From the NCBI GenBank assembly GCA_049472335.1, contig JBLIRO010000007.1, forward strand, positions 13,244-77,243: a DNA stretch of 64,000 nt, in the 5' to 3' direction. The stretch's first letter is position 1, and each line of letters begins with the position of its first letter. The notes beneath the pieces are model-generated. The model had not been told where the DNA came from. It saw nothing but the letters and a program-made list of their open reading frames with translations, and did no database searches. Below, piece after piece: positions 1,391-34,952 of this stretch. The DNA comes from a bacterium (GTDB lineage: Bacteria > SZUA-182 > DTGQ01 > JAFGSM01). Both the position numbers and the translations under genes were made by a program.

Positions 1391-1396
1391 CTTGTT

Positions 1397-4308: not shown

Positions 4309-4563
4309 TTAAACACCCCCCTGTATTTCAAATCTGTATTCCTCAATAACAGGATTGGCCAGAAGCTTCCGGCACATCTCATCTATCCTGCCCTTAGCTT
4401 CCTCGGGGTCTCCATCCTTGAGGTGAATTAAAACATATTTACCAAGTCTCACACCTTCCACCTCATTATAACCCAGGGAATCAAGCGCATGATGAATTGT
4501 CTTTCCCTGTGGATCTAAAACACCGGACTTCAGAGTTATGTAAATCTTGGCTACCATGATCAC
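4309..4563 (-). CDS. purS: FGAM synthase subunit PurS
   Basis: 84-aa ORF directly abutting the purQ start, with a typical PurS sequence (VLDPQG...LGY). Confidence 0.9.
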   Translation of the reverse strand: MIMVAKIYITLKSGVLDPQGKTIHHALDSLGYNEVEGVRLGKYVLIHLKDGDPEEAKGRIDEMCRKLLANPVIEEYRFEIQGGV

Positions 4564-4630
4564 CCTTTCTTAAAGTAATTAATATATTTATGAAATAAAG
4601 GCAAAAAAAGGATTAATTCTTCACATCGAA

Positions 4631-4659
4631 ATTATACGTTAATTTATGTATATTCACAA
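4631..4659 (-). promoter_or_regulatory. candidate sigma-70 promoter for purSQLF
   Basis: The minus strand reads TTGTGA, 17 nt, TATAAT, about 65 nt upstream of the purS ATG. Confidence 0.35.
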
Positions 4660-4804
4660 TAGAAAATATTCTTGTTCTTATATTTCTTTTAAATCATAAA
4701 AACCCATTTTACAATATAATACTGTTATTTTTCTAAATATCTTGATTTAGAAAGCCGATAACATATAATAGTGAAATAATATTCAGACTATTTGGAAAAA
4801 AATT

Positions 4805-5653
4805 ATGACTTCGGTGATGAAAATAAAATTCTGGGGAGTCCGGGGCTCGATCCCGAGCCCCGGCAAGTCTACCGTCAGATATGGTGGTAACACTTCCTGC
4901 GTCAGTATCCACACCGGCTCAAATAAAATCCTGGTCTTAGACGCAGGCACAGGTATACGTGAGCTGGGTAATTCAATAAAAGGGGGCCATGAAGAAATTT
5001 TTATCCTTTTATCCCATCGCCACTGGGACCACATTCAGGGCTTTCCATTCTTCTGGCCCATCTATGAATCGCACAGAAAGGTTAATATCCTTTCTAATGA
5101 ACAGGGGAAAAGCATGATATTATCCCTCCTCAATCAGATGGACGGCGCCCATTTCCCCATTGAACCACAAAATCTACCTTCCCTTCATCAATGCATAAAT
5201 GAAGATGTCTCGTCTTTCCTCAGCCATTATGGCTTTACTGTCTCCAGGATAGCCACGAACCATCCGGGCAATGGTTATGGTTATCGCGTTCAGAAAAATA
5301 GTCATTCCGTGATATATCTCACTGATAATGAGCTTGAACCTCCATATAAAAAAGAAACAGAATTTTATGAATTTGTCCAATTCTGCAGGGATACGGATTT
5401 GCTGATACACGATGCTCAATATCTGGAAAAGGATATGCCTCAGAAGCATGGTTGGGGCCATAGCCTGATAATCCAGGTATGCAAGTTAGCCGCGGAGGCA
5501 AAAGTAAAACACTTGATATTGACACACCACGATCCTGAGCGCACTGATAAAGAGATAGATGCCATCCAAAACAGTGCGCGCACCTGGTTCAAGGATAAAG
5601 GCCTTGATATCCAATGCACCGCTGCCTATGAAGGGCTCACAATTTATATCTAA
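4805..5653 (+). CDS. MBL-fold metallo-hydrolase
   Basis: 282 aa with the HxHxDH motif (SHRHWDHIQG) and an N-terminal KFWGVRGSIPSPG...YGGNTSCV pattern. Confidence 0.8.
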   Translation: MTSVMKIKFWGVRGSIPSPGKSTVRYGGNTSCVSIHTGSNKILVLDAGTGIRELGNSIKGGHEEIFILLSHRHWDHIQGFPFFWPIYESHRKVNILSNEQGKSMILSLLNQMDGAHFPIEPQNLPSLHQCINEDVSSFLSHYGFTVSRIATNHPGNGYGYRVQKNSHSVIYLTDNELEPPYKKETEFYEFVQFCRDTDLLIHDAQYLEKDMPQKHGWGHSLIIQVCKLAAEAKVKHLILTHHDPERTDKEIDAIQNSARTWFKDKGLDIQCTAAYEGLTIYI

Positions 5654-6414
5654 AAACAAGGAAAGCATGCTACCCGGATACTACCCACCACACAGTTTCC
5701 TGCTGGGTCACAGCAGCTACAGATGTCTTTTAGCGTGACATTAATATCTGGTCTAGAGATTGTCACACTAGTGTTTGTATCCGCCAGGGACTCGTCGATA
5801 GTAGGGGGCCCGGACAAAGCATCAACAAAATGATGATTCATACTGGATGCGCTCTCTGCTTTTGCAATCGTCGCATACAATGATATCATATCTGGTATAT
5901 TATTATAGAAAGAATATGGGCTAAGATCGAGTACCGCATTGTAGCCATCACTGACAACCGCTACATCCCCTTTGAAGAAAGGATACTGTGGCTGGTAAGT
6001 GATGCCCCTCGTCCAATCCGATAGGGATGGTGTCGTCCATGTCCAAACATATTCCAGGAATGCCGGCAGAACGTCAAGAAAACCCATGTACCAGCGAGCG
6101 TTAAAGTACGGGTCGATGTCAATTCTTGATGTCTGAATGTAACCAGGATATTTAGTATATTCAGTCAATGGGTTAATGGTAGTACTAATGGGGTAATCGC
6201 TTGCGTTGTAGCGCCCATTAGTTGTGCTTGTGATCCAGCTAGTGAAGGGCCATTCTCCGAGGGATGGCTTATATAAAAAAGGACTAAAGCCCGGATCAAT
6301 CACACCATCTAACCAGTAGTGATCAGGCGGCGAGTCAATCTGTGTGTATGCAGATGCACATACTAAAATAACAAAAATGAAACTTCCAATTAAAATAAAC
6401 AATACCTTTTTCAT
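5650..6414 (-). CDS. secreted hypothetical protein with a C-terminal Cys cluster
   Basis: I placed the start at the internal ATG at 6414, preceded by GAAGGGA. It has a signal peptide (MKKVLFILIGSFIFVILVCASAYTQ), an aromatic-rich body and a C-terminus CSCCDPAGNCVVGSIRVACFPCF. I recognise no family. Confidence 0.55.
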   Translation of the reverse strand: MKKVLFILIGSFIFVILVCASAYTQIDSPPDHYWLDGVIDPGFSPFLYKPSLGEWPFTSWITSTTNGRYNASDYPISTTINPLTEYTKYPGYIQTSRIDIDPYFNARWYMGFLDVLPAFLEYVWTWTTPSLSDWTRGITYQPQYPFFKGDVAVVSDGYNAVLDLSPYSFYNNIPDMISLYATIAKAESASSMNHHFVDALSGPPTIDESLADTNTSVTISRPDINVTLKDICSCCDPAGNCVVGSIRVACFPCF

Positions 6415-6702
6415 ATCTATCCCTTCTTTCAATAAGTTGTTAAAAACATTCAAACCTGCTACATCCTTATTATTCATAGTACTACCTCCTTTTTAGAAAA
6501 ATTAATACTGACAAGATTACACCGCATCGCAGAGGATTTGTAACTCTTACGTTTTTAATAGACGTAAAAAAAAATATAAATTTCCTTGTGAATTTTTTGC
6601 GACCGGCGGATTTGCCAAATCACAAGTTATTAGCCCAAAATTAAAATTTCTGGTCAAAACCGGTTCGACCCGAATCTCTTACTTTGATATAATCATTTCA
6701 TT

Positions 6703-7827
6703 ATGAATATGAAAAAGCAGGAATGGATCATTATTCAGGAGGAACTAGAGAACCGGATCCTATACGGACTTAGCTGTGAATGGAAACTGGCTCTTTCGAT
6801 AGCAAATCTCCCCAAAAGAGACCTTATGCAAATGCCCTTATTCAGCATCAAGGATATGAAAGGAAAATGGGGATATTGGTGCAAAGAAAGGCGTGAAATC
6901 TCATTAAGCCGGAACCTTATTTTGAATCATTCATGGGATTCCGTCAGGGAGATACTGATTCATGAAATGGCCCATCAATATACGGATATGATCCTATTCG
7001 CCCGGGATGAGCCTCCACATGGGCCCAGTTTCCACAATGCATGCCATATTCTCAGGGCTAATCCAAAGGCATCGGGTTCTTATCCACCCCTTGATGAAAG
7101 GGTTTCAAATAAAACACTCAATCTTGAAGACAAGATTCTGATAAAAGTAAAAAAGCTTTTGGCCCTTGCGAAAAGTCATAACAAAAACGAGGCGGAAGCA
7201 GCAATGACCAAAGCTCATGAGTTCATGGCAAGATACAACCTAGACCCTTTTGCACCCGGAAAAAGCCGTAATTTTGGTAGTATTTTCCTAGGCAAGCCTG
7301 CTCTTCGACATAGCAGGGCAGATTATCTCCTTGCAAATATTCTGAATGATTTTTATTTCGTGCAAGGGATTTGGGTTTCTGCTTATGTTCTGGTAAAAGG
7401 CAAAATGGGAAGGGTTTTGGAAATAAACGGAACTATTCGGAATATCCAGATAGCATTTTATATATATGATTACATCCAAAATTTCATTAAGAGCCAATGG
7501 TCATATTATATTAAAGATAAGGAATTAAACCATCACGGAAAGACCGATTTTGCTGTGGGCATTCTGGAAGGCTTTCGATCTAAAATAACTTCTCAGGAAA
7601 AGGAGGAAAAAGGTCCCGTGATGAGCCGTTCACTTATAGAAACTGAAGACCCTCTATTTGTAAATTATTTACATTATAGATATCCTCGCATCTCAACATT
7701 TAACAAAAGTATCTATACCCGGGATGAAAAACTGGTGAATGATGGAAAAAGGATCGGCAAAGGGCTTATTATTTCTGAAGGGGTTACGGAAAAAAAAGAA
7801 AGTCAAAGATTTCTGCCAGGGAATTAA
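6703..7827 (+). CDS. SprT-like zinc metallopeptidase domain protein with a DUF2786-like helix
   Basis: It contains an HEMAHQ (HExxH) motif and then KVKKLLALAKSHNKNEAEAAMTKAHEFMARYNL, which resembles DUF2786. Confidence 0.6.
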   Translation: MNMKKQEWIIIQEELENRILYGLSCEWKLALSIANLPKRDLMQMPLFSIKDMKGKWGYWCKERREISLSRNLILNHSWDSVREILIHEMAHQYTDMILFARDEPPHGPSFHNACHILRANPKASGSYPPLDERVSNKTLNLEDKILIKVKKLLALAKSHNKNEAEAAMTKAHEFMARYNLDPFAPGKSRNFGSIFLGKPALRHSRADYLLANILNDFYFVQGIWVSAYVLVKGKMGRVLEINGTIRNIQIAFYIYDYIQNFIKSQWSYYIKDKELNHHGKTDFAVGILEGFRSKITSQEKEEKGPVMSRSLIETEDPLFVNYLHYRYPRISTFNKSIYTRDEKLVNDGKRIGKGLIISEGVTEKKESQRFLPGN

Positions 7828-7842
7828 ATTTTTTGAAATGGT

Positions 7843-7967
7843 TCACCACTGAGACACAGAGGCACTGAGAAATAATTTTGGAAGTAACACTTACAGAGCA
7901 GATAATGGTGAGGTAATAAAATTTTTATCTTTTGATTTTTCTCTGTGTCTCTGAGCCTCCGTGGTGA
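7843..7967. repeat. REP/MITE-like imperfect palindromic element (ACACAGAG core)
   Basis: The left arm is TCACCACTGAGACACAGAGGCACTGAGAA (7843-7871). The right arm is TTTCTCTGTGTCTCTGAGCCTCCGTGGTGA (7938-7967). The arms are approximately reverse-complementary, and a related element lies at 32130-32188. Confidence 0.6.
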
Positions 7968-7983
7968 GATGAAGGAGTAAGTT

Positions 7984-8306
7984 ATGGACCAGTTAAACAA
8001 AATGTATTCAGAATTCGATGATATGTATAAAAAACTAAAGGGATGAAAGAACGCTTCGAAGATATAAAACAATTTTATGAAGAGGCGGATAAACAGGTTG
8101 AAGAGATGAGGCACCACCATGAAGAGGAAGCCAGAAAGATCTTTGAGGCATTGGAAAAACGGGATGAGGAGATCAGAAAATATTTAGAGACCAAAGAACA
8201 GGACAGAATAAGTCATTTACTCGCTGATATGGGGAATTTAATAGATGAGATGTTTGATATAAGGCTCAAACTTCTCGATAGCAGATATGATAAGGAGAAT
8301 GCATGA
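7984..8306 (+). CDS. small coiled-coil protein, either frameshifted or a 20-codon leader ORF coupled to an 87-codon ORF
   Basis: A strong SD (GAAGGAG, 6-nt spacer) precedes the ATG at 7984, and that ORF stops at 8044-8046. The stop overlaps the ATG of ORF 8043-8306 (ATGA), which has no good SD of its own. Both parts are charged and helical. Confidence 0.45.
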
Positions 8307-8602
8307 TTCAAAAAAAGATAAGATTGACACGGAAAGAAGCAGAGAGTTATGTGATTCCCTTTGGCAAATTTAATATGGTGGCTGTTGTTACAGATATCGG
8401 AATGATCGGATGCGGGATGTTTGATGTGTTAGCATTGGATAAATTCGATTACCCCGCAGCAAGGCTAAAATCAGATACTGGAGGTCTCATTGACAACGTT
8501 GATGACCTCTTGAGGGGAATTGTTAAGGATGCAAACAAAGCTGCCCAAAACAGGGGTATAGAGATTGGCATGACAGGCGCACAAGCCCTTGATTTATTGT
8601 AA
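8303..8602 (+). CDS. DUF1805 (YunC-like) domain protein
   Basis: 99 aa with the pattern IPFGKFNMVAVVTDIGMIGCGMFDV...ARLKSD...A, typical of YunC-family proteins. It overlaps the upstream ORF by 4 bp. Confidence 0.65.
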   Translation: MIQKKIRLTRKEAESYVIPFGKFNMVAVVTDIGMIGCGMFDVLALDKFDYPAARLKSDTGGLIDNVDDLLRGIVKDANKAAQNRGIEIGMTGAQALDLL

Positions 8603-8859
8603 CAGTTTAACATTTTGTAACTTTAGGGACTTGACAGTTTAGGAACTTTAGCGCACTTTCTAATCAGCTTTATCTTATATTCTTTTCCAAACTTTTATCT
8701 CTTAAGGCTTGCATTTAAAGACAAAATTCTACCTGCCGGCTGATATTTGACATATCATATTTACTATGTCATATTATTTGGCAATCTTGATATTTGGAAT
8801 CTCTTTAAAAATTTTCAGATTTATTAGCTAAGATCCCAATCCCTTTATCATTTTAGAAT

Positions 8860-10374
8860 ATGGGCATTAAAGAATCTATATTTAACAGTTTAAATGGAGC
8901 GTTTGTGGGAGAGGCAATTTCCGAATATGCCACAACTGTTCTATTGATAGATGACTCACGTACAGTTTGTGAGGCTATGAATGAAATCTTTAAGGATGAA
9001 GAGGATATAAAATTTTATTATTGCACTGATCCGGCACAAGAGGAAAAAATGGCCGAGGAAGTTAAACCTACTGTCATCCTTCAGGACCTTGTTATGCCAG
9101 GGATAGATGGATTAACCATGGTTAGCAAGCTCAGAGAAAATAAAATAACCCGCGATGTTCCCATGATTGTTCTTTCCGCCGAAGAAGATCCTAAGATCAA
9201 GGCCGAGGCCTTCGCGCTTGGTGCCAATGATTTTATGGTAAAATTTCCGAACAAAATCGAACTCGTAGCCCGGATTCGTTATCATTCAAAAAGTTATATC
9301 AATTTGTTGCAACGCAATGAAGCTTATCAGGCCCTGATTGAAAGTCAAAGAAGGCTTGAACTACGTAACCGTTTTATCCGTGAAACCTTTGGTCGTTACC
9401 TGTCTGACGATGTAGTAAACAAACTTCTGGAATCTCCCGAAGGGCTTAATCTGGGCGGAGAAAAGCGTAAGTTGACCATCATGATGTCCGATTTAAGGGG
9501 TTTTACATCTCTGGGAGAGAAATTGACACCTGAGCAAGTGGTTAATGTTATCAATAACTATCTAGAGACTATGACGAACATCATTTTTAACTACAATGGA
9601 ACTATTGTGGAGTTTATTGGAGATGCCATTCTCTCTATTTTCGGAGCGCCAAACCAAATGGAGGATGATGCAGCTAAGGCAGTTGCATGTGGGATTGAAA
9701 TGCAATTAGCCATGGATTCCGTCAACGAAAGGAATAAAAAAGAGGGCATGCCGGAATTAAAAATGGGTATAGGTATTAATACCGGTGAGGTCGTTGTAGG
9801 AAATATCGGCTCACAAAAACGCACCAAGTACGGCGTTGTTGGAAATAATGTAAATCTTGCTTCCAGGATAGAATCGTTTACCGTCGGCGGCCAAATACTC
9901 GTTTCTGAAAATACCAAGAAGGATGTGGGTGACATATTGAAGGTGAGTAAAGAGATGGAAGTAGAAACAAAGGGTATAGATGAACCGATTACAATATATG
10001 AAGTGGTTGGAATCAGCGGCGAATATGACCTTTATATGCCCGAAATATTTAGAGATGAACTTCTCTGTCTGCCAAAGGAGATACCAATAAAGTTTGTTTT
10101 AGTTAAAGATAAAAGCGCAAGCGGCACACTTCATCTGGGAAGTATCATCAAACTGTCATCTTTAGAGGCGGAAATAAAATCCCAGACAAAGGTCCGAGAA
10201 CTCTGTGATTTAAAATTTCTGTTGGTGGGACAAAATGACGAAGATATTCCCATTGAGCTTTACGCAAAAGTGATTGACCGGAAAACCGACGATGCCTCCA
10301 CGTTCTTAGTCCATTTCACATCCATGCCTAAAGTCACGGAAAATTATTTAAAAGGGCTTTTGGAAACCTGTTAA
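8860..10374 (+). CDS. response-regulator receiver fused to a class III adenylate/guanylate cyclase, with a C-terminal PilZ-like region
   Basis: REC domain: LLIDDSRT...ILQDLVMPGIDGL...DFMVKF. Cyclase domain: IMMSDLRGFT, FIGDAILSIFGAP, GINTGEVVVGNIG, YGVVGNNVNLASRIE. The last ~120 aa contain DKSASG, resembling the PilZ DxSxxG motif, but I see no clear RxxxR. Confidence 0.9.
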   Translation: MGIKESIFNSLNGAFVGEAISEYATTVLLIDDSRTVCEAMNEIFKDEEDIKFYYCTDPAQEEKMAEEVKPTVILQDLVMPGIDGLTMVSKLRENKITRDVPMIVLSAEEDPKIKAEAFALGANDFMVKFPNKIELVARIRYHSKSYINLLQRNEAYQALIESQRRLELRNRFIRETFGRYLSDDVVNKLLESPEGLNLGGEKRKLTIMMSDLRGFTSLGEKLTPEQVVNVINNYLETMTNIIFNYNGTIVEFIGDAILSIFGAPNQMEDDAAKAVACGIEMQLAMDSVNERNKKEGMPELKMGIGINTGEVVVGNIGSQKRTKYGVVGNNVNLASRIESFTVGGQILVSENTKKDVGDILKVSKEMEVETKGIDEPITIYEVVGISGEYDLYMPEIFRDELLCLPKEIPIKFVLVKDKSASGTLHLGSIIKLSSLEAEIKSQTKVRELCDLKFLLVGQNDEDIPIELYAKVIDRKTDDASTFLVHFTSMPKVTENYLKGLLETC

Positions 10375-10420
10375 TAAATAATAATTCCCTTCATTATTGA
10401 TAAGTGATTCAGGCCGGTAC

Positions 10421-10448
10421 TTGACCTATGAAATGTTGGTGTTATATA
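10421..10448 (+). promoter_or_regulatory. candidate sigma-70 promoter for the giant ORF
   Basis: TTGACC, 16 nt, TATATA, about 85 nt upstream of the ATG at 10534. The ATG itself is preceded by GGGGGAG. Confidence 0.35.
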
Positions 10449-10533
10449 AAAAAGACACAATCAAGATTTTTTGATTTATGAGAATGCCAATTTGACCAGG
10501 GTTTACAGTAACTAAAGCGGGGGAGCAATAAAT

Positions 10534-13500
10534 ATGACTTCGATAACGTGGCTTCATATATCAGACTTGCATGTTTGTCATCCAAAATACGGACACAGCT
10601 ATGAGGAAGTTGCGAAGAAGTTAGTGGACGATTTGAACCGTCTCAAGGATGAACACAACCTGATTCCAGACATGATCTTTTTTACAGGTGATATTGTATT
10701 CGGCCAGAAAAGCGCGGGTGAAGGGAAATCGATACCAGAACAGTATAAGGAAGCAAATATATTCCTTGAAAGCATTAGGACCACTTTTGACGAAGGCTTT
10801 CCCAAAAAAAATATTTTTCTTGTCCCTGGCAATCACGATATAAACCTTACGGTTGACAATAAGTCTCTTATACTATGGCTTCGGGAAAAAGCGGATCTCC
10901 TGAAGTTAACGGAGGTGATCCACGAACCTGCCAGTCTATGGCAGTCTTATATAACTAAATTTAAAGAATATGAAGAGTTTTTAAAAACTTACGGATACGA
11001 GCATCTAATAGGTGATCCGTCAAAAGCTATTTATTCCGATATACGGGAATTCAAAGGGATCAAGGTCGCTATTGCAGGTTTCAATTCTGCATGGTCATCT
11101 TCCGGGAAAGGGAAAAAGGAAAAGGGAAAGCTTTGGCTGGATGGAGAACGGCAATTGTCATCCTTTCGGGCAATCCTCAATAAGGCTAATTTCTCCATAG
11201 CCTTGATGCACCACCCTCTTAGCTGGTTTACAAAAAAAGAATTCCCTTTTTTTCAACGCAAACTGGAACCTGAATTCAAATTTCTGCTTCATGGTCATTA
11301 TCATACAAGCTGGATAACTCAGATTAATGAACATAATCGGATTGCCGCAGGACCTTGCTACTATAATACGGAGAAAGAACCAGGATATAATTTCGTTCGT
11401 TTGAACCTTGAAGAGGGAAAAGGTGAAGTATGGCTCAGGGAATATAATCCATCTGGACCCGGTGAATGGGTTCCATGTCAAACAGACGATGGACAAACGG
11501 ATCAATATGGAAGATATTATTTGATGAATGTCGCCTGGTTGAAGGATATGAAGGATACTCTGAGCATAGGCGCAGGAATAGAAAACGGAGAAACATCTCC
11601 ATCAAGGGTGTATGAAATTCCCAGCATTCATGAAAAAACAGGCATCGAAACATTTCATTCAGATGTTTTTTTACCCGCCCGACTGATTTGTAAGTTTTAT
11701 GAAACTATACATAGTATGGATAAGAGAGAGCTACACGAAGAGGTTTTTCAGGGTGGTCCTACACGAATCAAAGACATGTTCTTACCAAAAGAGGATATAG
11801 ACTTCCAAATGGTGGACCTGAAAAAAGATATTGAGATCCCATTTGAAAAAAAAGGGCCATGGCTCCAAGAATTAAGAACGGAAGAGCAAATCCGAAATCA
11901 CTTCATCCCTTTATGTAAGATATTTAAACATATAGATGAATGGATTTCCAAGGACAGGGATATACTTCTGTATGGCCCCCCATTCTGCGGCAAGACAAGC
12001 CTCCTGACATTTCTGTCGTTGGAAGCCAAGAGGCGATATGGAGACCAGTTGCCCATTGTGCGGCTTAAACCAACCAAGGATCTAAAAAGTGAAGAGATAG
12101 AGGGGGCAGTGACAAGACTGCTTCAACACCTTGAGCATATGGATATCTTTGGCAAAAAAAACCAGGCAATTCTGGTGGTTGACAATATTCATAAGCCCGG
12201 GATATTTGCCATAACCAGAGAATTATTAAAATCACCCCATCATTGCAGGGTCTGGGGCGCCGCCCGTTGCTCCCGATTCGATGAAATCCTGAGCAAGGAC
12301 GAGGAAAATCCATGGAATAAAAAAGGGATTATAAAATATGATTGTGGATTGATTGAAGAAAAAGACGTTGATTATTTCACCGATCATGTTCTAAAGCCCC
12401 TGTTAATTGCCAATGGAGAAGAAAATCAGATTGATGATGTAAAAGCCACTATAAAGTCTATGGACCGAACACCGATCAGGTTCCTTTGTCAAGTGTGGAA
12501 ATTGATTAAAGACAAAAGACTCGATGAAGGCCTTGGATATGCTTCATTGATAAGAAAAGAACCTACAGGTGTGGACGAGATTGTAAGGTCGATTTTACCT
12601 CACAATATCGCCGGTTTAAAGGCAATTGCCATCGCTGCCTTTCTTCAGGGGCCGTCTTGGGAGCTATTAACATATGTTCTTTCAAAAACCGAGAGTTTCG
12701 GAGATGATCTGGCAGCAGAAACCATAACGGATTTGCGCCAATCTCTTGCATTATCTAATGATCCGGAAGAACCAAACAAGGTCTTCATGTATGCCCAGAT
12801 ACAGGAAGAGATTTGCAGACCGGGGAATCTCTCGGATTTCTTTAAGAATGAGATCTGGGGAGGGATCCAAGGATTTCTTAAAGACTGGAAGCATCTAAAA
12901 GAACAGGGTTCCCATGAAAAACTATGCACATTCTGGCTATCCCTATCGGACCTGGCAAAGGAAAATGATCAGAAAGAGATCGCCGTAAATAGTGCTGAAA
13001 GAGCCCTGGAATATGCCTCCGGAGAACAGGAAATAAAGGCCCTGTTTGAAATAGCATTGGCAACAAATCGCCTTAAGGGGAAATGGTGTGAAGACACCAT
13101 CAATCTACTTTGGCGTGCGGTTGAAAAATCCGGGCAAATGGAAAAAGTAACATTAGACGCTGCTTATGCAAAGGCAATTCTTGGAAACCTTTTTCTCAAT
13201 ATCGACCCGCCAAATATTGAAAGGGCCATATCTTTCTTGCACGAAGCCAAAAATGCCTGCGAATTCCTCGGGGCAGACTCAGACGTAGGGCATCTGAATA
13301 AAATGCTTGCACTTGCGAAGATAAATCAAGGGGACAATAAGATCATGCAGGCTGTCCATCATGCGCGACAGGCACTGGAAACATATCGTAAAATCAAGGA
13401 TATTACCAAGGAGATAGAAAGCCTTTATTTGCTTGCTTACTGCCTGCGGATGCAATCAAAACCGGATTGGCCTCAGGCAATCACTTGTTATGGGGAAGCT

Positions 13501-16500
13501 TTGGATCTTTTGAAAGAGCCGGAGCAGCAAGCTGAGCGTGCACAGGCTCTTTATCAGATGGCATTTTGTCTTTATAATCAGGTTAATCCTGATTGGTCTT
13601 CAGCAATCAGGGCATCCGATGAATCTGTCAAGATTCTTAGAGGACTTAAAGACACGCAAGGTTTGATCGATCATTTATTACAGTTTGCATGGTTGTGCCA
13701 TAATCAGGCTAAACCGAACTGGGAAGAGGCAATCTCAAGTTACCGGGAAACACTTGAACTTCCAAAGGCCCCCGAACAAAATGCCGACCGGGCCCTGATT
13801 TTTTATCTGCTGGGATATTGCCTATATAATCAACCTGATCCGGATTGGTCCGGGGCTATCATGTATTTTCAGGATGCGTTGAAACTACAACAGAACCAGG
13901 GACAAGATATAGATAAAGGACTGACACTCTATCAGTTGGCCTTTTGTCTCCATAATAAACCTGAGCCGGATTGGGAAGAAGCTATCAGATCTTATCAGGA
14001 TGCATTAAGGTTCCTGACAGGACCAACTCAACAGACAGAACGGGCGGAGGCATTATTTTATCTGGCATACTGCCTGTATAATCAACCGAAACCTGACTGG
14101 GCCTCAACGATCGCTTGTTACCAAGGTGCACTGGAGCTTCTTACGGACCCGGGAAAAAAAGAAGAACGGTCGGAATCATTTTATCAACTGGCCTTTTGTC
14201 TCCATAACCAATCGGACCCGGACTGGGCAGAGGCCATAGCTTGTTACAAGGAAGCTTTAGAGCTGCTTACCGATACAGGGGAACAATCAGACAGAGCAAT
14301 GGTCCTTTATCAACTGGCCTTTTGCCTTCATAACCAGCCGGACCCGGACTGGGCAGAGGCCATAACACATTACAGGGAAGCCCTGGAACTATTTATTGAT
14401 CCAGAGCACTGGGCTGACAGGGCAATGACATTGCATCAGTTGGCCTTTTGCCTTCATAGCCAGCCGGATCCGGATTGGGCGGAATCTATCGTCCGGTACA
14501 GGGAAGCCTTAGACCTGCTTACTGATCCGGAATACGAATCTGAAAGAGCAATGACACTTTATCAACTGGCCTTTTGCCTCCATTATCAGCCGGATCCGGA
14601 TTGGGCACAGGCGATAACTTACTATAGTAAGGCCTTGGAGCTACTTACCGGTTCAGAACAACAATCAGACAGGGGAATGACTTTATATCAGACTGCCCTT
14701 TGCCATCAATATCAGCCGGATCCGGATTGGGCACAGGCTATAATACACTACCAGGAAGCATCGGAACTACTTACTGATACGGAACATGAAGCTGAGCGGA
14801 TACAATCACTTTACTGGTTGGCATTTTGTTTCCATAATCAACCTGAGCCAGACTGGGCACAGGCTATACAATATTACCGGAAGGTATTGGAACTTCTTTC
14901 GGGACCGGAACATCAATACGAAAGGGCACTATCACTCTACCAGTTGGCTTTTTGCCTTTACAACCAGCCTGAACCTGATTGGCCGGAAGCAATCAAAGCC
15001 TCCATAGAATCTGTCGAGATTTTCGAAAGCCTGGATGATAAGCAAGGCTTGCTGGATTCTCTGCTTCAGTTTGCCTGGTTGTGCCATAATCAGTGCTATC
15101 CTGATTGGTTCAGAGCGATCAGCAGTTACCAGGAAGCCTTAGAACTGCTTACAGGGCCGGAACATAGAACCGAACGTGCTCGAACTCTGTATCATTTAGG
15201 ATTTTGCCTTCAAAACCTTATGGAACCTAAATGGTCTGAAGCTATTACATGTTATATGCAAGCTTTAGAAATACAAACAGATGAAAAGCAACAGACTGAT
15301 AGGGCAAAAACCCTTTATCAATTGGCATTTTGTTTTCAACATCAGGGGGAACCAAACTGGTCAAGGGCGATTACCTGTTACCGCAAAGCATTAGAGCTCC
15401 AGACAGACCCGGAGCAGAAAACTGAGAGGGGACAAACTTTATATCAATTGGCATTTTGTCTCCACAATAGGCAGAAACCAAATTGGTCAGTGGCAATCAA
15501 ATATTATCAAGAGGCATTGGAACTTCAGACGGATACGGAAGAAGATCGCAAAGAAAGAGCAAAGACCCTTTATCAACTGGCATCCTGCTTTCACAAAAGG
15601 CCGACCCCTAATTTTTCAAAAGCAATCCTCTATTATAACGAAGCTTTAGAAATTCAAACGGACCCGGATCAAAGAATCGATCGGGCACGAACGCTCTATC
15701 ATTTGGCATCTTGCCTCCGTAATCAGCCGGAACCGGATTTGTTCCAGGCAGCCGCCTATTACAGAGAGGCACTGAGACTTCAATCAGATCCCGATCAAAG
15801 ATATGACCGGGCAATGACTCTGTATTGGTTAGCGTATTGCGTTTATAAACAACCGGATCCGGATTGGTCCGAGGCAATCAATGTATCGCGTGAATCAGTA
15901 AAAATCTTTAAGGATCTGGAAAAAAATGATGAACTATTGGATTCCTTGATACAGCATGCCTGGTTATGTTACAACCAACCGAAGCCGGACTGGTCTGAGG
16001 CAATAACCCATTACCGGGAGCTAATAGAACTCCAATCGGATCCGGATCAGCAGGCAAACAAGGCAAGATCCCTTTATCTGCTGGCTTATTGTCTCCATAA
16101 TCAGCCTGATCCTGACTGGTCAGAAGCGATAATGTATTACCAGGAAGCTCTAGAATTTCAGACATCTTCAGAACAACAACTCGACAGGGCATGGACACTT
16201 TATCAATTGGCATATTGTCTTCATAATCAATCCGAACCCAACTGGTCTGAAGCCATTAAATATTACCAGGAGGCACTAAGATTACAGATTAATCCTGAAC
16301 AAAGGGCTAACCGTGCACTGACTCTATACTGGATTGCTTCTTGCCTTCATAATCAGCCGGAGCCGGATTGGTCTATGGCCATCAAAACGTCGAAAGAATC
16401 TGTAGAAATCTTTAAGGACCTGAATAAAAAGCAGGATCTTTTGGATTCTTTAATACAGTTTGCCTGGTTGTGTCATAACAAACCGGAGCCGGATTGGGAC

Positions 16501-17475
16501 AATGCAATCAAGTATTATCTTGAGGCTTTGGAATTACAAACAGAGCCGGAACAGCAAGACGACAGGGCATTGAACCTTTTTCAACTGGCAGCCTGTTACC
16601 ATCAAAAACTGGAGCCGGATTGGGACAACGCGATCAAATGTTACAATGAAGCATTGGATTTGCAAACGGATAAGGATCAGCTGGACAACAGGCCACGCAT
16701 GCTTTGTCGTCTGGCTTTTTGCTACCATAATAAGCCTGAGCCGGACTGGGCCCAGGCAATAGATTGTTATCGAAAGGCGCTGGATTTACTAACCTCTCCG
16801 GAGCAAAGATCCGAACGGGCACGGACCCTTTATCAGTTGTCGTATTGTCTTTATAAACAGCCGGAACCGGATTGGGATAACGCAGGCAGGTTTGCAAAAG
16901 AAGGGCTTGAGCTTTCCCGGCTTCTTGGAGAAAGGAGACAACCGCCGTTGCCTCCTTCTCAACTGGCAAGTATATTCGAGGAAATGTCGAGTCCGGATCT
17001 GGAGGCAGCTACCGATTTCCGGCGAGAGTCGGTTGAAACCTTAAAAAACGTGAATAGCATCTTTGATCTCATTGTCACAGTCGACAGAAAAAGCGAATTC
17101 AACGAAGGCGACTATTGGGCAAAGAAGCTCGAGAATACAAGGCTTATCGACATTGATGAATCTGATAATATCGCTTTGGAGGATCAAAGGATGGCCTTTT
17201 TGGATCTCCGCCGAAATGACCTAGACGGGGTTTTCAGTATTGCCAAAAAACTCCATAACGGTCCTCAGCATTCCCGGGCGCTCGGGCTGGCAGCCATTGC
17301 CCACTTCGCAAAGGATGAAAGCGATGCCGCTCTTGAGGATTTGATAAACGCAAAAGCAGGTCGTGAAGACCTTACCTGGCTGAAAAAAATAGCCGAAGGA
17401 TACTTTAAAAGATATAACAGGGATAAGCTGGAAGGCTTCTTAACACTGGTTGATGAGGCAACACAAACTGGATGA
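10534..17475 (+). CDS. giant multidomain protein: metallophosphoesterase, P-loop NTPase, 28 x 42-aa TPR-like repeats and a unique C-terminal domain
   Basis: 2313-aa uninterrupted ORF. The five calcineurin-like phosphoesterase motifs occur in order (HISDLH, FTGDIVF, VPGNHD, LMHHP, LHGHYH). Walker A is LLYGPPFCGKTSLL (nt 11974-11997) and Walker B is AILVVDNIH (~12169-12192). The 126-bp repeat array spans 13414-16945. Confidence 0.9.
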   Translation: MTSITWLHISDLHVCHPKYGHSYEEVAKKLVDDLNRLKDEHNLIPDMIFFTGDIVFGQKSAGEGKSIPEQYKEANIFLESIRTTFDEGFPKKNIFLVPGNHDINLTVDNKSLILWLREKADLLKLTEVIHEPASLWQSYITKFKEYEEFLKTYGYEHLIGDPSKAIYSDIREFKGIKVAIAGFNSAWSSSGKGKKEKGKLWLDGERQLSSFRAILNKANFSIALMHHPLSWFTKKEFPFFQRKLEPEFKFLLHGHYHTSWITQINEHNRIAAGPCYYNTEKEPGYNFVRLNLEEGKGEVWLREYNPSGPGEWVPCQTDDGQTDQYGRYYLMNVAWLKDMKDTLSIGAGIENGETSPSRVYEIPSIHEKTGIETFHSDVFLPARLICKFYETIHSMDKRELHEEVFQGGPTRIKDMFLPKEDIDFQMVDLKKDIEIPFEKKGPWLQELRTEEQIRNHFIPLCKIFKHIDEWISKDRDILLYGPPFCGKTSLLTFLSLEAKRRYGDQLPIVRLKPTKDLKSEEIEGAVTRLLQHLEHMDIFGKKNQAILVVDNIHKPGIFAITRELLKSPHHCRVWGAARCSRFDEILSKDEENPWNKKGIIKYDCGLIEEKDVDYFTDHVLKPLLIANGEENQIDDVKATIKSMDRTPIRFLCQVWKLIKDKRLDEGLGYASLIRKEPTGVDEIVRSILPHNIAGLKAIAIAAFLQGPSWELLTYVLSKTESFGDDLAAETITDLRQSLALSNDPEEPNKVFMYAQIQEEICRPGNLSDFFKNEIWGGIQGFLKDWKHLKEQGSHEKLCTFWLSLSDLAKENDQKEIAVNSAERALEYASGEQEIKALFEIALATNRLKGKWCEDTINLLWRAVEKSGQMEKVTLDAAYAKAILGNLFLNIDPPNIERAISFLHEAKNACEFLGADSDVGHLNKMLALAKINQGDNKIMQAVHHARQALETYRKIKDITKEIESLYLLAYCLRMQSKPDWPQAITCYGEALDLLKEPEQQAERAQALYQMAFCLYNQVNPDWSSAIRASDESVKILRGLKDTQGLIDHLLQFAWLCHNQAKPNWEEAISSYRETLELPKAPEQNADRALIFYLLGYCLYNQPDPDWSGAIMYFQDALKLQQNQGQDIDKGLTLYQLAFCLHNKPEPDWEEAIRSYQDALRFLTGPTQQTERAEALFYLAYCLYNQPKPDWASTIACYQGALELLTDPGKKEERSESFYQLAFCLHNQSDPDWAEAIACYKEALELLTDTGEQSDRAMVLYQLAFCLHNQPDPDWAEAITHYREALELFIDPEHWADRAMTLHQLAFCLHSQPDPDWAESIVRYREALDLLTDPEYESERAMTLYQLAFCLHYQPDPDWAQAITYYSKALELLTGSEQQSDRGMTLYQTALCHQYQPDPDWAQAIIHYQEASELLTDTEHEAERIQSLYWLAFCFHNQPEPDWAQAIQYYRKVLELLSGPEHQYERALSLYQLAFCLYNQPEPDWPEAIKASIESVEIFESLDDKQGLLDSLLQFAWLCHNQCYPDWFRAISSYQEALELLTGPEHRTERARTLYHLGFCLQNLMEPKWSEAITCYMQALEIQTDEKQQTDRAKTLYQLAFCFQHQGEPNWSRAITCYRKALELQTDPEQKTERGQTLYQLAFCLHNRQKPNWSVAIKYYQEALELQTDTEEDRKERAKTLYQLASCFHKRPTPNFSKAILYYNEALEIQTDPDQRIDRARTLYHLASCLRNQPEPDLFQAAAYYREALRLQSDPDQRYDRAMTLYWLAYCVYKQPDPDWSEAINVSRESVKIFKDLEKNDELLDSLIQHAWLCYNQPKPDWSEAITHYRELIELQSDPDQQANKARSLYLLAYCLHNQPDPDWSEAIMYYQEALEFQTSSEQQLDRAWTLYQLAYCLHNQSEPNWSEAIKYYQEALRLQINPEQRANRALTLYWIASCLHNQPEPDWSMAIKTSKESVEIFKDLNKKQDLLDSLIQFAWLCHNKPEPDWDNAIKYYLEALELQTEPEQQDDRALNLFQLAACYHQKLEPDWDNAIKCYNEALDLQTDKDQLDNRPRMLCRLAFCYHNKPEPDWAQAIDCYRKALDLLTSPEQRSERARTLYQLSYCLYKQPEPDWDNAGRFAKEGLELSRLLGERRQPPLPPSQLASIFEEMSSPDLEAATDFRRESVETLKNVNSIFDLIVTVDRKSEFNEGDYWAKKLENTRLIDIDESDNIALEDQRMAFLDLRRNDLDGVFSIAKKLHNGPQHSRALGLAAIAHFAKDESDAALEDLINAKAGREDLTWLKKIAEGYFKRYNRDKLEGFLTLVDEATQTG
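13414..16945 (+). repeat. in-frame tandem array of 28 x 126 bp (42 aa) inside the giant ORF
   Basis: The repeat consensus is RAxTLYQLAFCLHNQPDPDWxEAIxYYxEALELxTDPEQxxD. I counted the units by hand. One unit has an extra codon. Confidence 0.9.
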
Positions 17476-17631
17476 AGCCTTTAAACCGGCAGCATAGATT
17501 ATTATCTTGTTTTGGCTTCCTTTTTTGCCCACTTTGTGTCCTCTAAGATAAATCTGTCCATCAGTTTGATCCTGTTCCTTCGAACAACTTCAAAAATTGC
17601 TGCCAAGAAAAATTCAGACTTTACACATTAA

Positions 17632-18048
17632 TTATAGGGATTGTATAAAACCTTCCCTAATTAAATAGCTTGTTATAGCACTCGTTATCTTTTCTGCAAT
17701 CTTAAGGTCCTCTTTGGCTTCCTCCTTACCAATACTCAAATCAAACTCATAATCTCCAATTTGCCTTTCACGAAAAAGACGGGTAAGCAATTTACTAAAC
17801 TCTTTTGAAAAAATAGAAGTTTTAATGAAATACTGATTAAAAGCACTAATCACGGCAGAATGTTTGGAAAAAACAAGTTGTCTCGTCAGTAGAATAGCTT
17901 CCATTGCATAGAAAGCTGCATAGTAAGCCCTGGATGAGGCAAAGTCATAGTCACCTTCATCAATCTGCCGTTTTGCAGATGCAACAGATCTGTTAGCCTT
18001 TTCTATCATCGTTTTTAATTGATCTCTGAGTAATTTATCATTGTTCAT
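17632..18048 (-). CDS. HEPN domain protein (toxin of a MNT-HEPN pair)
   Basis: 138 aa with the PF05168-like pattern GDYDFASSRAYYAAFYAMEAILL...SKHSAV...RERQIGDYE. It overlaps the upstream nucleotidyltransferase gene by 4 bp. Confidence 0.8.
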   Translation of the reverse strand: MNNDKLLRDQLKTMIEKANRSVASAKRQIDEGDYDFASSRAYYAAFYAMEAILLTRQLVFSKHSAVISAFNQYFIKTSIFSKEFSKLLTRLFRERQIGDYEFDLSIGKEEAKEDLKIAEKITSAITSYLIREGFIQSL

Positions 18049-18365
18049 AAGACTATCCCTTCTTTTGTAACATTCATCAAAAGGGGACTATAGATCTGCC
18101 TTTGATATCTTTCTTCTGAGATAGCAAATGCAGAAATAACCGCATTATATTGATAAAGGGCCTCACCTGTTATTTCATCGATGATCTGGTTGACGTTCCG
18201 CGATACCTTGTCAACAACTACTAAACAATCATAATCGGAGCCTTGAACATCATCTCCTCGCGCCCTTGATCCAAATAAAATAACCTGTTTAAGGTGACTG
18301 CCTATTTTTTTTCGAATTTGAGACACAAGGTATTCCAATACTTCATCTTTTCTGACATGCTTCAT
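18045..18365 (-). CDS. minimal nucleotidyltransferase (MNT antitoxin)
   Basis: 106 aa with the LFGSRARGDDVQGSDYDCLVVVD pol-beta-type NTase motif. Confidence 0.9.
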   Translation of the reverse strand: MKHVRKDEVLEYLVSQIRKKIGSHLKQVILFGSRARGDDVQGSDYDCLVVVDKVSRNVNQIIDEITGEALYQYNAVISAFAISEERYQRQIYSPLLMNVTKEGIVL

Positions 18366-18636
18366 TATTTCCCCCTGAATGATAGAAAGAAGAGCGCCAT
18401 TCTTCGTTTATGTAAAATGTACTTTTATTCATTGACATTTTACCAACCCTTTTATAACATTTCAATTGATTTAAATTAATATATTAACAATACGTTAAGT
18501 TTCATTTTTTCTCCAAAAATCAAATTTAAATCATTACATATAGGAGAAATTATTTATGAGACCAATTACTAGTCGAGATAGAGTAAGAGATATTTTTAAT
18601 CTTTTTTCAAGTAGAATTAGAGAAAATAGTAATAAT

Positions 18637-18912
18637 TTAATAAACCTGATCATGTGGTCCAATATTGACAGGAACAATGGTTTTTTCTGAAATGAAAAAT
18701 TCCATGGTAATGCGATAGGAGATATTGATTGATACCGAGTAGAGATCCTTTAGATTACCAGATAACATATGCAGCCTTAATGAAGGGTGATAAGGATTTA
18801 ATTCTAGAAGTTTTAATACCTTTTCATAATGGCCAAGTAATTCCGGGTGTTTCCTGGCAAATTTTTTTGCCCGCTTGATATAGCTCTTAGTGTAGATGAG
18901 AGCGTAACTCAT
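18637..18912 (-). CDS. RelE/StbE (YafQ-like) family type II toxin
   Basis: 91 aa ending in ...HMLSGNLKDLYSVSINISYRITMEF...VNIGPHDQVY. It overlaps the upstream antitoxin by 4 bp. Confidence 0.7.
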   Translation of the reverse strand: MSYALIYTKSYIKRAKKFARKHPELLGHYEKVLKLLELNPYHPSLRLHMLSGNLKDLYSVSINISYRITMEFFISEKTIVPVNIGPHDQVY

Positions 18913-19163
18913 CCCTTAGTAATGCGCTTGATGTGATCTTCCACATCTTCTTTTATATAATTACCAGTTTCTAATTCCCTGCGGGCATCTGCAAGGGCTG
19001 CTTCCAGCTCATATTCCCGAAAACGGTTGTAGGTTTCCATATCGACCACCACATATTTACCTTTTCCCCTGACTGTTATGATTACTTCTTCCTGATCTTT
19101 TATTAAATCATCTATCACAGATACCCCTTTTTTCTTCAACTCATTTGCAGATATATATGTCAT
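18909..19163 (-). CDS. Phd/YefM-type antitoxin
   Basis: 84 aa; the sequence ISANELKKKGVSVIDDL...VIITVRGKGKYVVVDMETYNRFREYE is typical of prevent-host-death antitoxins. Confidence 0.65.
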   Translation of the reverse strand: MTYISANELKKKGVSVIDDLIKDQEEVIITVRGKGKYVVVDMETYNRFREYELEAALADARRELETGNYIKEDVEDHIKRITKG

Positions 19164-19328
19164 AGAGTACCCCCAATCTTTAAATTTATAATCTACTTTT
19201 ATACACCATAATAAATACTATTAATAGTTTTGTCAATAGCTCATTTAGATTAAATAATTAAAGTACATTTAAATATACTCCCAGCAATCAAAATATATTT
19301 TAAAAATCCTGAATAGATATTGAGCAAT
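18952..19328. repeat. direct repeat copy 1 (antitoxin gene plus its upstream region)
   Basis: It aligns by eye with 19471-19850 at an offset of ~520 bp, with only scattered mismatches across the antitoxin ORF and ~80 bp upstream. Confidence 0.8.
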
Positions 19329-19460
19329 ATCATTATATTCTCTTACAATAAACATACTGAAGGCAATGTCATTGAGTTAAGCATTTACCGTTAAAATATC
19401 CTCTTTTTAAAGGAGCAATTAAGTATTGTGTCCCCTTAATTTCCCCTCCTTAATTTCCCC

Positions 19461-19682
19461 TTAATTTCCCTTTATATAATCACCATTTTCTAATTCCCTG
19501 CGGGCATCTGCAAGGGCTGCTTCCAGCTCATATTCCCGAAAACGGTTGTAAGTTTCCATATCGAGCACCACATATTTACCTTTCCCCCTGACTGTTATTA
19601 TTACTTCTTCCTGATCTTTTATAACATCATCTATCACAGATACCCCTTTTTTCTTCAACTCATTTGCAGATATATACGTCAT
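19461..19682 (-). CDS. orphan paralog of the Phd/YefM-type antitoxin (no cognate toxin downstream)
   Basis: 73 aa, nearly identical to the 18909-19163 product through residue ~65, with a divergent truncated C-terminus (GDYIKGN). Confidence 0.6.
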   Translation of the reverse strand: MTYISANELKKKGVSVIDDVIKDQEEVIITVRGKGKYVVLDMETYNRFREYELEAALADARRELENGDYIKGN

Positions 19683-19850
19683 AGAGTACCCCCAATCGTT
19701 AAATTTATAATCTACTTTTATATACTATAATAAATACTATTAATAGTTTTGTCAATAATACTTTTGGATTTAATGATTAAAGTATATTTCTATTATGCGC
19801 TATCAGCAATAAAGACGTGTCTTGTGAAAATCCAGAATAGATTGTGCGAA
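19471..19850. repeat. direct repeat copy 2 (orphan antitoxin plus upstream region)
   Basis: See copy 1. This copy ends within a few bp of the purC stop codon. Confidence 0.8.
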
Positions 19851-19855
19851 GGTTT

Positions 19856-20578
19856 CTATTGGATATCTGCCTCTTTGCAGACCCTCTTAAAGACCTCCTG
19901 GTAGGCATCCTCCACCTCTCCCAGGTCCCTTCGGAAGCGGTCCTTGTCCAGCTTCTTCAGGGTATTTTTGTCCCATAGACGGCAGCCATCCGGGGTAATC
20001 TCATCCGCAAGGCAAATGGACCCGGAGGGGGTTTTTCCGAACTCCAGTTTAAAATCAACAAGTATGATATCCAGCTCTTCAAAAAAATTCTTCAGTATCC
20101 TGTTCACCTTGAGGCTGATGTCCTTGATATACGCCAGATCATCATCACTTGCAAAGCCGAATACCCGGATATGGTTCTCGTTGATCATGGGATCATGGAG
20201 GGCATCATCCTTATAGAAAAATTCCAATATGGGCGCTTGAAGCTCCCCACCCTCTTCCATTCCGAATCTCTTGGCAAGGCTCCCTGCGATCCTGTTTCTT
20301 ACGACCACCTCGATGGGAAAGATGGTGAGTTTCTTGACAAGCATTTCCCTGTCATCTATCCGCCGTACGAAATGGGTCGGGATTCCCTCTTTTTCCAGCA
20401 GCTTAAAGATGGCCGTTGATATCTTGTTATTATATATCCCCTTATCAATGATGGTCCCTCTCTTTGTGGCATCAAAGGCAGTAGCATCATCCTTAAAGTA
20501 CTGGATCACCAAAGATGGATCTGATGTGCTATATATAATCTTGGCCTTTCCTTCGTAAAGTTTATTTTCTTTTTCCAT
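19856..20578 (-). CDS. purC: SAICAR synthetase
   Basis: 240 aa; LYEGKAKIIYST...DDATAFD...NRIAGS is typical PurC. Confidence 0.95.
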   Translation of the reverse strand: MEKENKLYEGKAKIIYSTSDPSLVIQYFKDDATAFDATKRGTIIDKGIYNNKISTAIFKLLEKEGIPTHFVRRIDDREMLVKKLTIFPIEVVVRNRIAGSLAKRFGMEEGGELQAPILEFFYKDDALHDPMINENHIRVFGFASDDDLAYIKDISLKVNRILKNFFEELDIILVDFKLEFGKTPSGSICLADEITPDGCRLWDKNTLKKLDKDRFRRDLGEVEDAYQEVFKRVCKEADIQ

Positions 20579-20600
20579 GATAGTTCCTTCCTTTTTTCAC

Positions 20601-20650
20601 TTTGCATTTTGCATTTTGCACTTTTCATTTTGCATTTTTGTTTTTGCATT
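20601..20650. repeat. imperfect tandem octamer repeat (TTTTGCAT-like, about 6 units)
   Basis: The sequence is tttgcattttgcattttgcacttttcattttgcatttttgtttttgcatt. It spans the purB stop codon and the purB-purC spacer. Confidence 0.7.
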
Positions 20651-21959: not shown

Positions 21960-22004
21960 AGTACTTCCTACGTCTTTATTTTTATTTATTTTTATTGCTT
22001 AATT

Positions 22005-22769: not shown

Positions 22770-22815
22770 AACACAGATCTTAAGGCTAATTTTCCCCCCC
22801 CTCTACATGTCTAAA

Positions 22816-29923: not shown

Positions 29924-29993
29924 TGTTACAGACAGTCTGTAAACCCAAAAACTCGATCGGGGATTTCCCCAAAGAGATTAGTATGAAGCCGAA

Positions 29994-31976: not shown

Positions 31977-32129
31977 CAAAGCTCTCAAATGATAGAATAT
32001 AAATCATTAGAATTCTCTCTATATATATTATTTAATATCATCCTGAGGTATCCAACTGATAAATAATCAAACAGATTTCAAATGGAGAATAGCCGATTCA
32101 GACTAAAAATCCAATTCTCAAAAATACTC

Positions 32130-34948: not shown

Positions 34949-34952
34949 ACCA

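Follow-up and report, generated by a model that had tools for sequence, protein, structure and literature searches.

The pur genes of Bacillus subtilis form an operon in the order purEKBCSQLFMNHD. We analysed a 64,000-nucleotide stretch of bacterial DNA (hereafter, the window; contig JBLIRO010000007.1 of assembly GCA_049472335.1, positions 13,244 to 77,243, forward strand; GTDB lineage SZUA-182) in which the internal B-C-S-Q-L-F order of that operon recurs on a single strand, yet 15.3 kb of other genes separate purC from purS. As in B. subtilis, the FGAM synthase subunits, small and large, are encoded by separate purS, purQ and purL genes. The two arrangements differ in what lies upstream, which in the window is pnp, an M16 peptidase gene, dut and a metallo-beta-lactamase (MBL)-fold hydrolase gene rather than purE and purK, and in that purS of the window has its own conserved promoter. 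Of the traits of a Bacillus-type operon, the one-strand order purB-purC-purS-purQ-purL-purF is present, whereas contiguity under one promoter is absent: the gap holds genes on the opposite strand, and the conserved promoter precedes purS. A first-pass annotation of the window had explained this arrangement by insertion of one accessory block into an ancestral contiguous operon. Based on comparisons with relatives, we consider it likely instead that the split is old, that the pur genes now belong to two transcription units and that the interval is layered by age rather than being one mobile island.

The gene map was based on a listing of open reading frames (ORFs) and on Pfam scans, with NCBIfam used as well for the upstream half. 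All coordinates refer to the window. On the minus strand, purS (4309-4563; Pfam PurS), purQ (3607-4308; GATase_5), purL (1397-3610; AIRS/AIRS_C) and purF, which extends past the left window edge and was recognized by tblastn matches to purF of relatives, are tightly packed at 1-4563, where the genes abut or share 4 nt. The upstream half, also on the minus strand and identified using both Pfam and NCBIfam, comprises purC (19856-20578), purB (20625-21959), the MBL-fold hydrolase gene (22005-22769), dut (22816-23280) and the M16 peptidase gene (23274-24557). From pnp/M16 through dut and the MBL gene to purB and purC, the gaps are short, up to ~46 nt. The gap between purC and purS, 4564-19855, is exactly 15,292 bp. 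The gene order and the gap length given by the first-pass annotation were thus borne out, and the contents it had named (a SprT/DUF2786 protein, a cyclase, a giant ATPase, an MNT-HEPN pair, a RelE-type pair and a duplicate antitoxin) were all found. The interval also contains three genes missing from that account: one for a second MBL-fold hydrolase (4805-5653), a DUF1805 gene (8303-8602) and a 275-aa ORF (hyp275; 5650-6477).

Relatives on the purS side were gathered using a protein search with PurL, which returned five at 76-85% identity, and a search with the N-terminus of the giant protein, which returned L096, closer still. In L096 (purL 90%; JGI sample 3300041075), purF-purL-purQ-purS is accompanied, divergently, by genes for the MBL hydrolase, the SprT protein, a hypothetical protein, the DUF1805 protein, the cyclase and the giant protein. 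This contig is collinear with window positions 803-14483 at 85-89% nucleotide identity and ends inside the TPR repeats of the giant gene. The order in L093 (purL 85%; GCA_049472295.1) is MBL, SprT, hypothetical protein, a GH123::DUF1805 fusion, cyclase, Sua5 and the 5' end of the giant gene. L094 (purL 82%; JGI sample 3300005832) carries a 777-aa ORF, a gene for a cation-efflux protein, MBL, SprT, hypothetical protein and DUF1805 before the contig ends. Similarly, L095 (purL 76%; GCA_975972645.1) carries a 63-aa ORF, a cation-efflux gene, MBL, SprT, hypothetical protein, DUF1805 and a HEAT-repeat gene. Within L093 (1694-6243), a GH123 glycosidase domain is fused before DUF1805 and a Sua5/YciO/YrdC gene lies between the cyclase and giant genes; neither occurs in the window.

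The proteins of the interval diverge in step with the Pur proteins. Specifically, orthologues in L096, L093, L094 and L095 are 92, 82, 79 and 66% identical for the MBL hydrolase, encoded at the same position in each, 85, 62, 56 and 57% identical for the SprT protein, and 84, 68, 68 and 61% identical for the DUF1805 protein. The cyclase, likewise at the same position, is 95% identical in L096 and 80% in L093, and the giant protein is 86% identical over 1318 aa in L096 and 70% identical in L093. The corresponding values in L096/L098, L093/L001, L094 and L095/L099 are 90/85/82/76% for purL and 93/81/79/76% for purQ. Such tracking is the pattern expected of vertical inheritance. Based on the shared gene order, this co-divergence and the native composition described below, positions 4805-17475 are evidently a vertically inherited syntenic block, save for ~1 kb at hyp275, that accounts for ~80% of the interval, and the split is evidently old. 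The single accessory block of the first-pass annotation does not stand up to this comparison: ~12.7 of the 15.3 kb, minus the ~1 kb at hyp275, is syntenic in relatives, which keep the same block and, within the clade, never have purC directly before purS.

For the purC side, PurC served as the query in a scan of genomes and in a protein search; an exact look-up of the window's own purC gave no record. The upstream half of the window, 19856-24557, is collinear with L098, L099, L002 and L101. In L101 and L102 (purC 84%), a convergent giant gene ends 12 nt after the purC stop, and the C-terminal 248 and 197 aa of its product are 75 and 78% identical, respectively, to the window protein. In the window, the giant gene is also convergent on purC, and the two stops are separated by a 2,380-bp segment of toxin-antitoxin (TA) genes (17476-19855). 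Because only 12 nt lie between the stops in L101 and L102, the adjacency of purC and the giant 3' end is evidently ancestral for this sub-clade, and the 2,380 bp of the window an insertion exactly between the two stops. The TA segment is absent from L101/L102, L098, L001, L002, L099 and L103, and the TA genes had no tblastn match in any relative's locus. Nearly every relative has different cargo in the 3' flank of purC. In L098 (purC 97%; same sample as L096), homology ends 7 nt past the purC stop and a patatin-like fragment follows. L001 (86%) has remnants of the giant 3' end, a methyltransferase gene, a radical-SAM gene and unrelated genes; in L103 (81%), an insertion sequence transposase cuts purC after approximately codon 210; L099 (75%) has a beta-CASP hydrolase gene; and L002 (71%) has a convergent DUF763 gene. 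In L100 (66%), purC is followed directly by purF, giving purB-purC-purF without purSQL. Based on this turnover, the 3' flank of purC is a local variable spot. Varied cargo of this kind recalls genomic or defence islands at integration hotspots between conserved core genes, but only 2.4 of the 15.3 kb varies in this way, the rest being conserved and compositionally native.

The region between purS and the divergent MBL gene, 4564-4804, is 241 bp long and has a GC content of 20%. A pattern scan recovered the purS promoter that had been proposed from a first reading, TTGTGA-17-TATAAT at 4659-4631 on the minus strand (10/12 matches), as well as a promoter-like site for the MBL gene, TTGATT-16-TATAAT at 4742-4769 on the plus strand. 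L096, L093 and L094 keep the -35 and -10 hexamers of the purS promoter and their spacing, and L095 keeps them in part. Rfam revealed no riboswitch or leader over positions 1-40000 at E values up to 0.1. Since the hexamers and their spacing are conserved in relatives, purSQLF would be transcribed independently as an established trait of the lineage, with the unit boundaries placed by these promoter matches.

As an outgroup survey, we used a metagenome scan with PurQ, which yielded 80 loci at 56-64% identity and no closer relatives; in 42 of them, the sequence ahead of purS extends for at least 1.2 kb. Of these 42, purC lies no more than 1 kb upstream of purS in 13, purB in 10 and something else in 19. 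Six outgroup loci have an M16 peptidase gene with dut or the MBL hydrolase gene joined directly to purB-purS-purQ-purL-purF, and a Halanaerobiales locus, L005, has purB-C-S-Q-L-F contiguous. Among relatives at ~71-97% purC identity or 76-90% purL identity, purC is not followed by purS in any; the split thus predates the clade. Because distant bacteria often join both halves with the same M16/dut upstream neighbours, a once-contiguous pur cluster that was later split is a plausible ancestor and the most economical one. Of the first-pass proposal of an ancestral operon split by insertion, the interruption stands and the contiguity is plausible, but the single 15.3-kb insertion falls away. It is improbable that purBC and purSQLF were never adjacent and that, with independent histories, they came by a Bacillus-like order through coincidence. 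Such a history would fit the survey, in which purC directly precedes purS in only 13 of the 42 loci and an unrelated gene does so in 19, and it would also fit the purB-purC-purF arrangement of L100 (purC 66%) and the lack of adjacency in every clade relative. Nevertheless, the two halves lie on the same strand, in canonical order and within 15 kb of each other; in the six distant loci, M16-dut or M16-MBL is joined to purB-purS-purQ-purL-purF, and several others have a fully contiguous purB-purC-purS-purQ-purL-purF.

For an old split with a layered interval, we infer the following order of events. The oldest layer would be the genes for the MBL hydrolase, the SprT/DUF2786 protein, the 87-aa protein and the DUF1805 protein, which are found on the purS side in every relative examined. 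The middle layer would be the response-regulator cyclase and the giant protein, common to the sub-clade with at least ~84% purC identity. The youngest, present in this genome only, would be the 2.38-kb TA cluster between the stops and the ~1 kb with a putatively secreted, Cys-rich ORF. The accessory part of the interval thus comes down to the TA cluster and one ORF segment, ~3.4 kb in all, and the remaining ~12 kb is conserved in the lineage. As to transcription, the upstream unit would run (pnp)-M16-dut-MBL-purB-purC and end head-on at the 3' end of the giant, NLR-like gene. The downstream unit, purS-purQ-purL-purF, would start from its own sigma-70-type promoter in an AT-rich region shared divergently with the MBL-hydrolase operon. 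An insertion at the 3'-3' junction would disturb no promoter or operon, which would account for the tolerance of varied cargo there.

No more probable than an independent history of the two pur halves is descent of the entire MBL-to-giant block from one ancient element that integrated in the clade ancestor and was later domesticated. The SprT/DUF2786/DUF7168 protein and the MBL hydrolase match phage families (phrog_421, 1e-22, and phrog_392, 1e-11, respectively), and the NLR/Avs-like architecture of the giant protein is typical of defence genes. Against this, the content is layered: L095 has MBL-SprT-hypothetical protein-DUF1805 and then a HEAT-repeat gene, with neither cyclase nor giant, and both L094 and L095 have extra genes between purS and the MBL gene. 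Moreover, the block holds no mobility gene, and no viral relatives were found.

Composition and mobility tests bear on the proposal that a single accessory or mobile island, recently acquired and spanning all 15.3 kb, entered between purC and purS, which we regard as very improbable. Genes on both strands, TA modules and a defence-like NLR-type protein inside the interval, PADLOC candidates at the giant N-terminus (PDC-S60, 3e-37) and at the cyclase (PycC), and a GC content that in parts of the interval is below that of the pur genes all fit such an island. However, the same genes lie in the same order beside purS in four independent relatives, the most distant with a purL identity of 76%, and beside purC in two, with identities that track the Pur proteins. 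The mean GC content of the window is 41%. The genes from MBL to giant have a GC content at third codon positions (GC3) of 0.38-0.49, in keeping with the core range of 0.39-0.58, and the only composition outliers in the interval are the TA segment and hyp275. The TA segment has a GC content of 0.334, and its genes have GC3 values of 0.30-0.37 as compared with the 0.39-0.58 of core genes; in hyp275, GC1/GC2/GC3 are flat at 0.42/0.43/0.43, unlike those of neighbouring genes. The GC and codon profile thus failed to mark a foreign block of the size first supposed, and composition and synteny agree on which parts are foreign. A synonymous-codon log-likelihood against core genes discriminated no gene class; GC3 alone was informative. 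Pfam detected no integrase, recombinase or transposase domain in any ORF of 4564-19855, and no repeats, att-like ones included, border the block as a whole, its TA segment or its hyp275 segment, in agreement with the earlier observation of neither an integrase nor flanking direct repeats. The only tRNA gene of the window is at 47838, and none is near the block. Neither viral contigs nor phage or plasmid collections yielded relatives; in particular, no SprT/DUF2786 relatives were found in viral contigs and phage records, and plasmid records searched with the TA segment gave no match. Among island traits, absence from close relatives applies only to 17476-19855 and ~5657-6682, and 4805-17475 shows no integrase, no att site or tRNA and, outside hyp275, no deviant composition. 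Least credible of all is an assembly artefact in which the contig misjoins purC- and purS-bearing regions through the repetitive TPR gene, whose ~27 repeats of 126 nt break every relative's contig: independent assemblies back both ends (purS to the giant 5' end in L096/L093, the giant 3' end to purC in L101/L102), the repeats are only 60-75% identical and hence assemblable, and the ORF is uninterrupted over 2313 codons.

Several points weigh against an old split with a layered interval. The relatives are metagenome contigs or metagenome-assembled genomes, and the pairings L093-L001, L096-L098 and L095-L099 were assumed from a shared bin or sample. No single relative contig spans purC to purS, because every one breaks in the TPR repeats, and the contiguity of the whole interval was pieced together from different organisms. 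L001 lacks the body of the giant gene beside its 3' remnants; that lineage is rearranged. Adjacency of purC and purS occurs in only about one-third of the distant loci, which leaves the ancestral state of this lineage unproven. Finally, the promoters and the transcription-unit boundaries are predicted from pattern matches only, and the pattern scan predicted no terminator-like site after purC.

The genes assigned to the oldest layer lie on the plus strand. The first (4805-5653) encodes a 282-aa MBL-fold metallo-hydrolase with an HRHWDH motif (Pfam Lactamase_B_2). The protein resembles RNase Z and cyclic-nucleotide phosphodiesterases but is below every family cutoff in NCBIfam. The second (6703-7827) encodes a 374-aa SprT-like zinc metalloprotease, with an intact HEMAH motif, fused to DUF2786 and DUF7168. 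It is followed by the genes for an 87-aa charged helical protein (8043-8306) and the DUF1805 protein (8303-8602), which share 4 nt and are conserved in all four purS-side relatives. A 98-aa ORF on the minus strand (7824-8120), antisense to the 87-aa gene and the end of the SprT gene, is probably spurious: its tblastn matches in relatives fall only over the sense gene.

Between the MBL and SprT genes lies a segment specific to the window, ~5657-6682 (~1 kb), in whose place L096 has 391 unrelated bp and for which L093 has no counterpart. The product of its ORF, hyp275 (minus strand), has a hydrophobic N-terminus that is a signal peptide or membrane anchor, along with numerous aromatic residues and a C-terminus rich in Cys (CSCCDPAGNCVVGSIRVACFPCF). 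The protein matched no family in Pfam, NCBIfam, PADLOC or PHROGs and had no tblastn match in any relative.

The cyclase gene (8860-10374, plus strand) encodes a 504-aa protein consisting of a response-regulator receiver domain and a class III nucleotide cyclase domain (Pfam Response_reg and Guanylate_cyc). We considered Pycsar as a description of the cyclase and the giant protein together. In the window, a class III cyclase adjoins a large putative effector, and the PADLOC model PDLC00736 'Effector / Endonuclease' (parent system not stated) matches the giant N-terminus at 5e-19. However, the cyclase carries a two-component receiver domain, the PADLOC PycC models match its cyclase domain only (E ~5e-23) and these matches reflect the generic class III cyclase fold. 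Pfam detected no cyclic nucleotide-binding domain in the giant protein, and the gene for a more distant homologue, in L097, lacks an adjoining cyclase gene. On these grounds, Pycsar was rejected.

The giant gene (10534-17475, plus strand) encodes a 2313-aa protein with an N-terminal metallophosphoesterase domain, a P-loop NTPase with conserved Walker A (GPPFCGKT) and Walker B motifs, and a TPR-like array. The array consists of ~27 tandem repeats of a 126-nt, 42-aa unit at 13447-16887. In many bacteria, the N-terminal domain is fused to NACHT/AAA_16 with LRR, TPR or FGE domains. The predicted architecture is NLR-like: as in STAND proteins such as Avs/AVAST and bNACHT, which combine an N-terminal effector with a C-terminal repeat sensor, an effector-like N-terminal domain precedes a P-loop NTPase and a long repeat array. 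In contrast to these, its gene does not have a patchy distribution but is conserved by vertical descent at a single chromosomal site. The NTPase region had no significant match to a Pfam STAND family, only weak generic AAA matches, and the NCBIfam DS8_antiphage match scored 114 bits against a cutoff of 790 and covered the N-terminal domain only. In an AlphaFold model of residues 301-930 (pLDDT 64), the top Foldseek match was Avs5 (E 2.5e-5, TM 0.18); the low confidence of the model makes this fold match only suggestive. A sequence search of the PDB with the N-terminal 989 aa gave no match, and literature searches on Metallophos-STAND defence and on pur gene order brought up nothing bearing on the locus.

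The TA segment was annotated using Pfam, PHROGs, motifs and repeats; its genes are on the minus strand. HEPN (17632-18048; 68 bits, above the Pfam cutoff) and MNT (18045-18365; NTP_transf_2, 35 bits, above the cutoff) overlap by 4 nt. Their catalytic motifs are intact, Rx6H (RQLVFSKH) in HEPN and GSx10DxD (GSRARGDDVQGSDYD) in MNT, so the hallmark of MNT-HEPN modules, an MNT GSx10DxD beside a HEPN Rx4-6H in an operon arrangement, is present. A RelE-like toxin gene (18637-18912) overlaps a Phd antitoxin gene (18909-19163; 37.8 bits vs. a Pfam cutoff of 29.8) by 4 nt as well. The toxin matches HigB- and YafQ-like families below Pfam cutoffs and RelE-like PHROGs at ~1e-5 to 1e-6. The third unit, recognized as a repeat and by protein alignment, is a truncated duplicate of Phd (19461-19682); the promoter and operator are duplicated along with it. 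The orphan antitoxin reported next to purC is indeed a duplicate: the direct repeats 18952-19318 and 19471-19842 share 90% identity, and 67 of 71 residues agree between the two Phd proteins, of which the purC-proximal one lacks the last 13. The duplicated strong promoters, TTGACA-17-TATTAT, overlap the palindrome AATACTATTAATAGT. The segment resembles type II RelE/Phd(YefM) and MNT-HEPN modules in its small operons of two genes that overlap by 4 nt, the antitoxin gene leading, in its Pfam matches (Phd, HEPN and nucleotidyltransferase) and motifs, and in a strong promoter with a palindromic operator-like sequence; it differs from RelE/Phd modules in the toxin that is below the Pfam cutoffs and in the orphan Phd copy without a toxin gene. 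Judging from the sequence, the TA pairs would be functional. Three short tandem copies of TCCCCTTAATTTCCC (19431-19470) lie where the truncated Phd frame ends, at the inner edge of the duplicated unit.

Two of the relatives show particular rearrangements next to purC. In L103 (790-2850), a 615-aa DDE_Tnp_1 transposase gene follows purC, and an ATP-binding cassette transporter permease gene takes the place of the giant gene. In L001 (1441-4420), the purC/giant junction is duplicated: the last 116-124 nt of the giant gene occur at 1705-1828 and at 4301-4416, the copies being 91% identical. In front of the second copy stands a 21-nt relic of the 3' end of purC, and the two flank a methyltransferase and radical-SAM/SPASM cassette. 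No duplicated junction remnants of this kind occur in the window. It is conceivable, though doubtful, that the 12-nt purC/giant junction is an integrase-free hotspot of cassette capture at which cargo entered independently in sister lineages, namely the TA genes in the window, the patatin-like fragment in L098 and the methyltransferase and radical-SAM genes in L001. The mechanism of capture may be a single homologous crossover that integrates circular DNA bearing a junction copy, as is hinted by the L001 cargo, flanked as it is by two 91% identical junction copies that include the 21-nt purC remnant.

Elsewhere in the window lies a 7.7-kb stretch (27219-34953), between rpsO (26873-27274) and queD/PTPS (34953-35324), in place of which L098 has 144 bp and which L099 and L002 lack. 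It holds genes for a DruA-like fragment, two family-less ORFs, an outer-membrane protein beta-barrel, a caspase-like Peptidase_C14 protein (GC 0.30) and a DUF4384 protein, and it is a clearer strain-specific island than 4564-19855. Self-comparison of the window also revealed short palindromes or direct repeats at 32131-32187, 51897-51989 and 57702-57778, at 36656-36791 and at 52443-52610. Sequence 79% identical to the element at ~32.1 kb also lies between genes of L098 (1242-1362), which suggests a small dispersed repeat.

The locus carries a caution: a canonical operon broken by TA and defence-looking genes mimics a fresh island, and it is the synteny of relatives that reveals ~80% of the interval to be old and vertically inherited. 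The interruption looks like layered accretion, in which nothing is recent but the arrival of small cassettes at a harmless 3'-3' junction. As such, it would be ordinary operon fragmentation with cassette insertion, mildly unusual in that the cargo at the purC 3' junction changes from one sister lineage to the next. For a poorly known, uncultured lineage, the analysis defines a conserved MBL / SprT-DUF2786 / DUF1805 cluster. It also defines a conserved pair, the receiver-cyclase and the NLR-like giant protein, that could be studied as chromosomal signalling or immunity genes.

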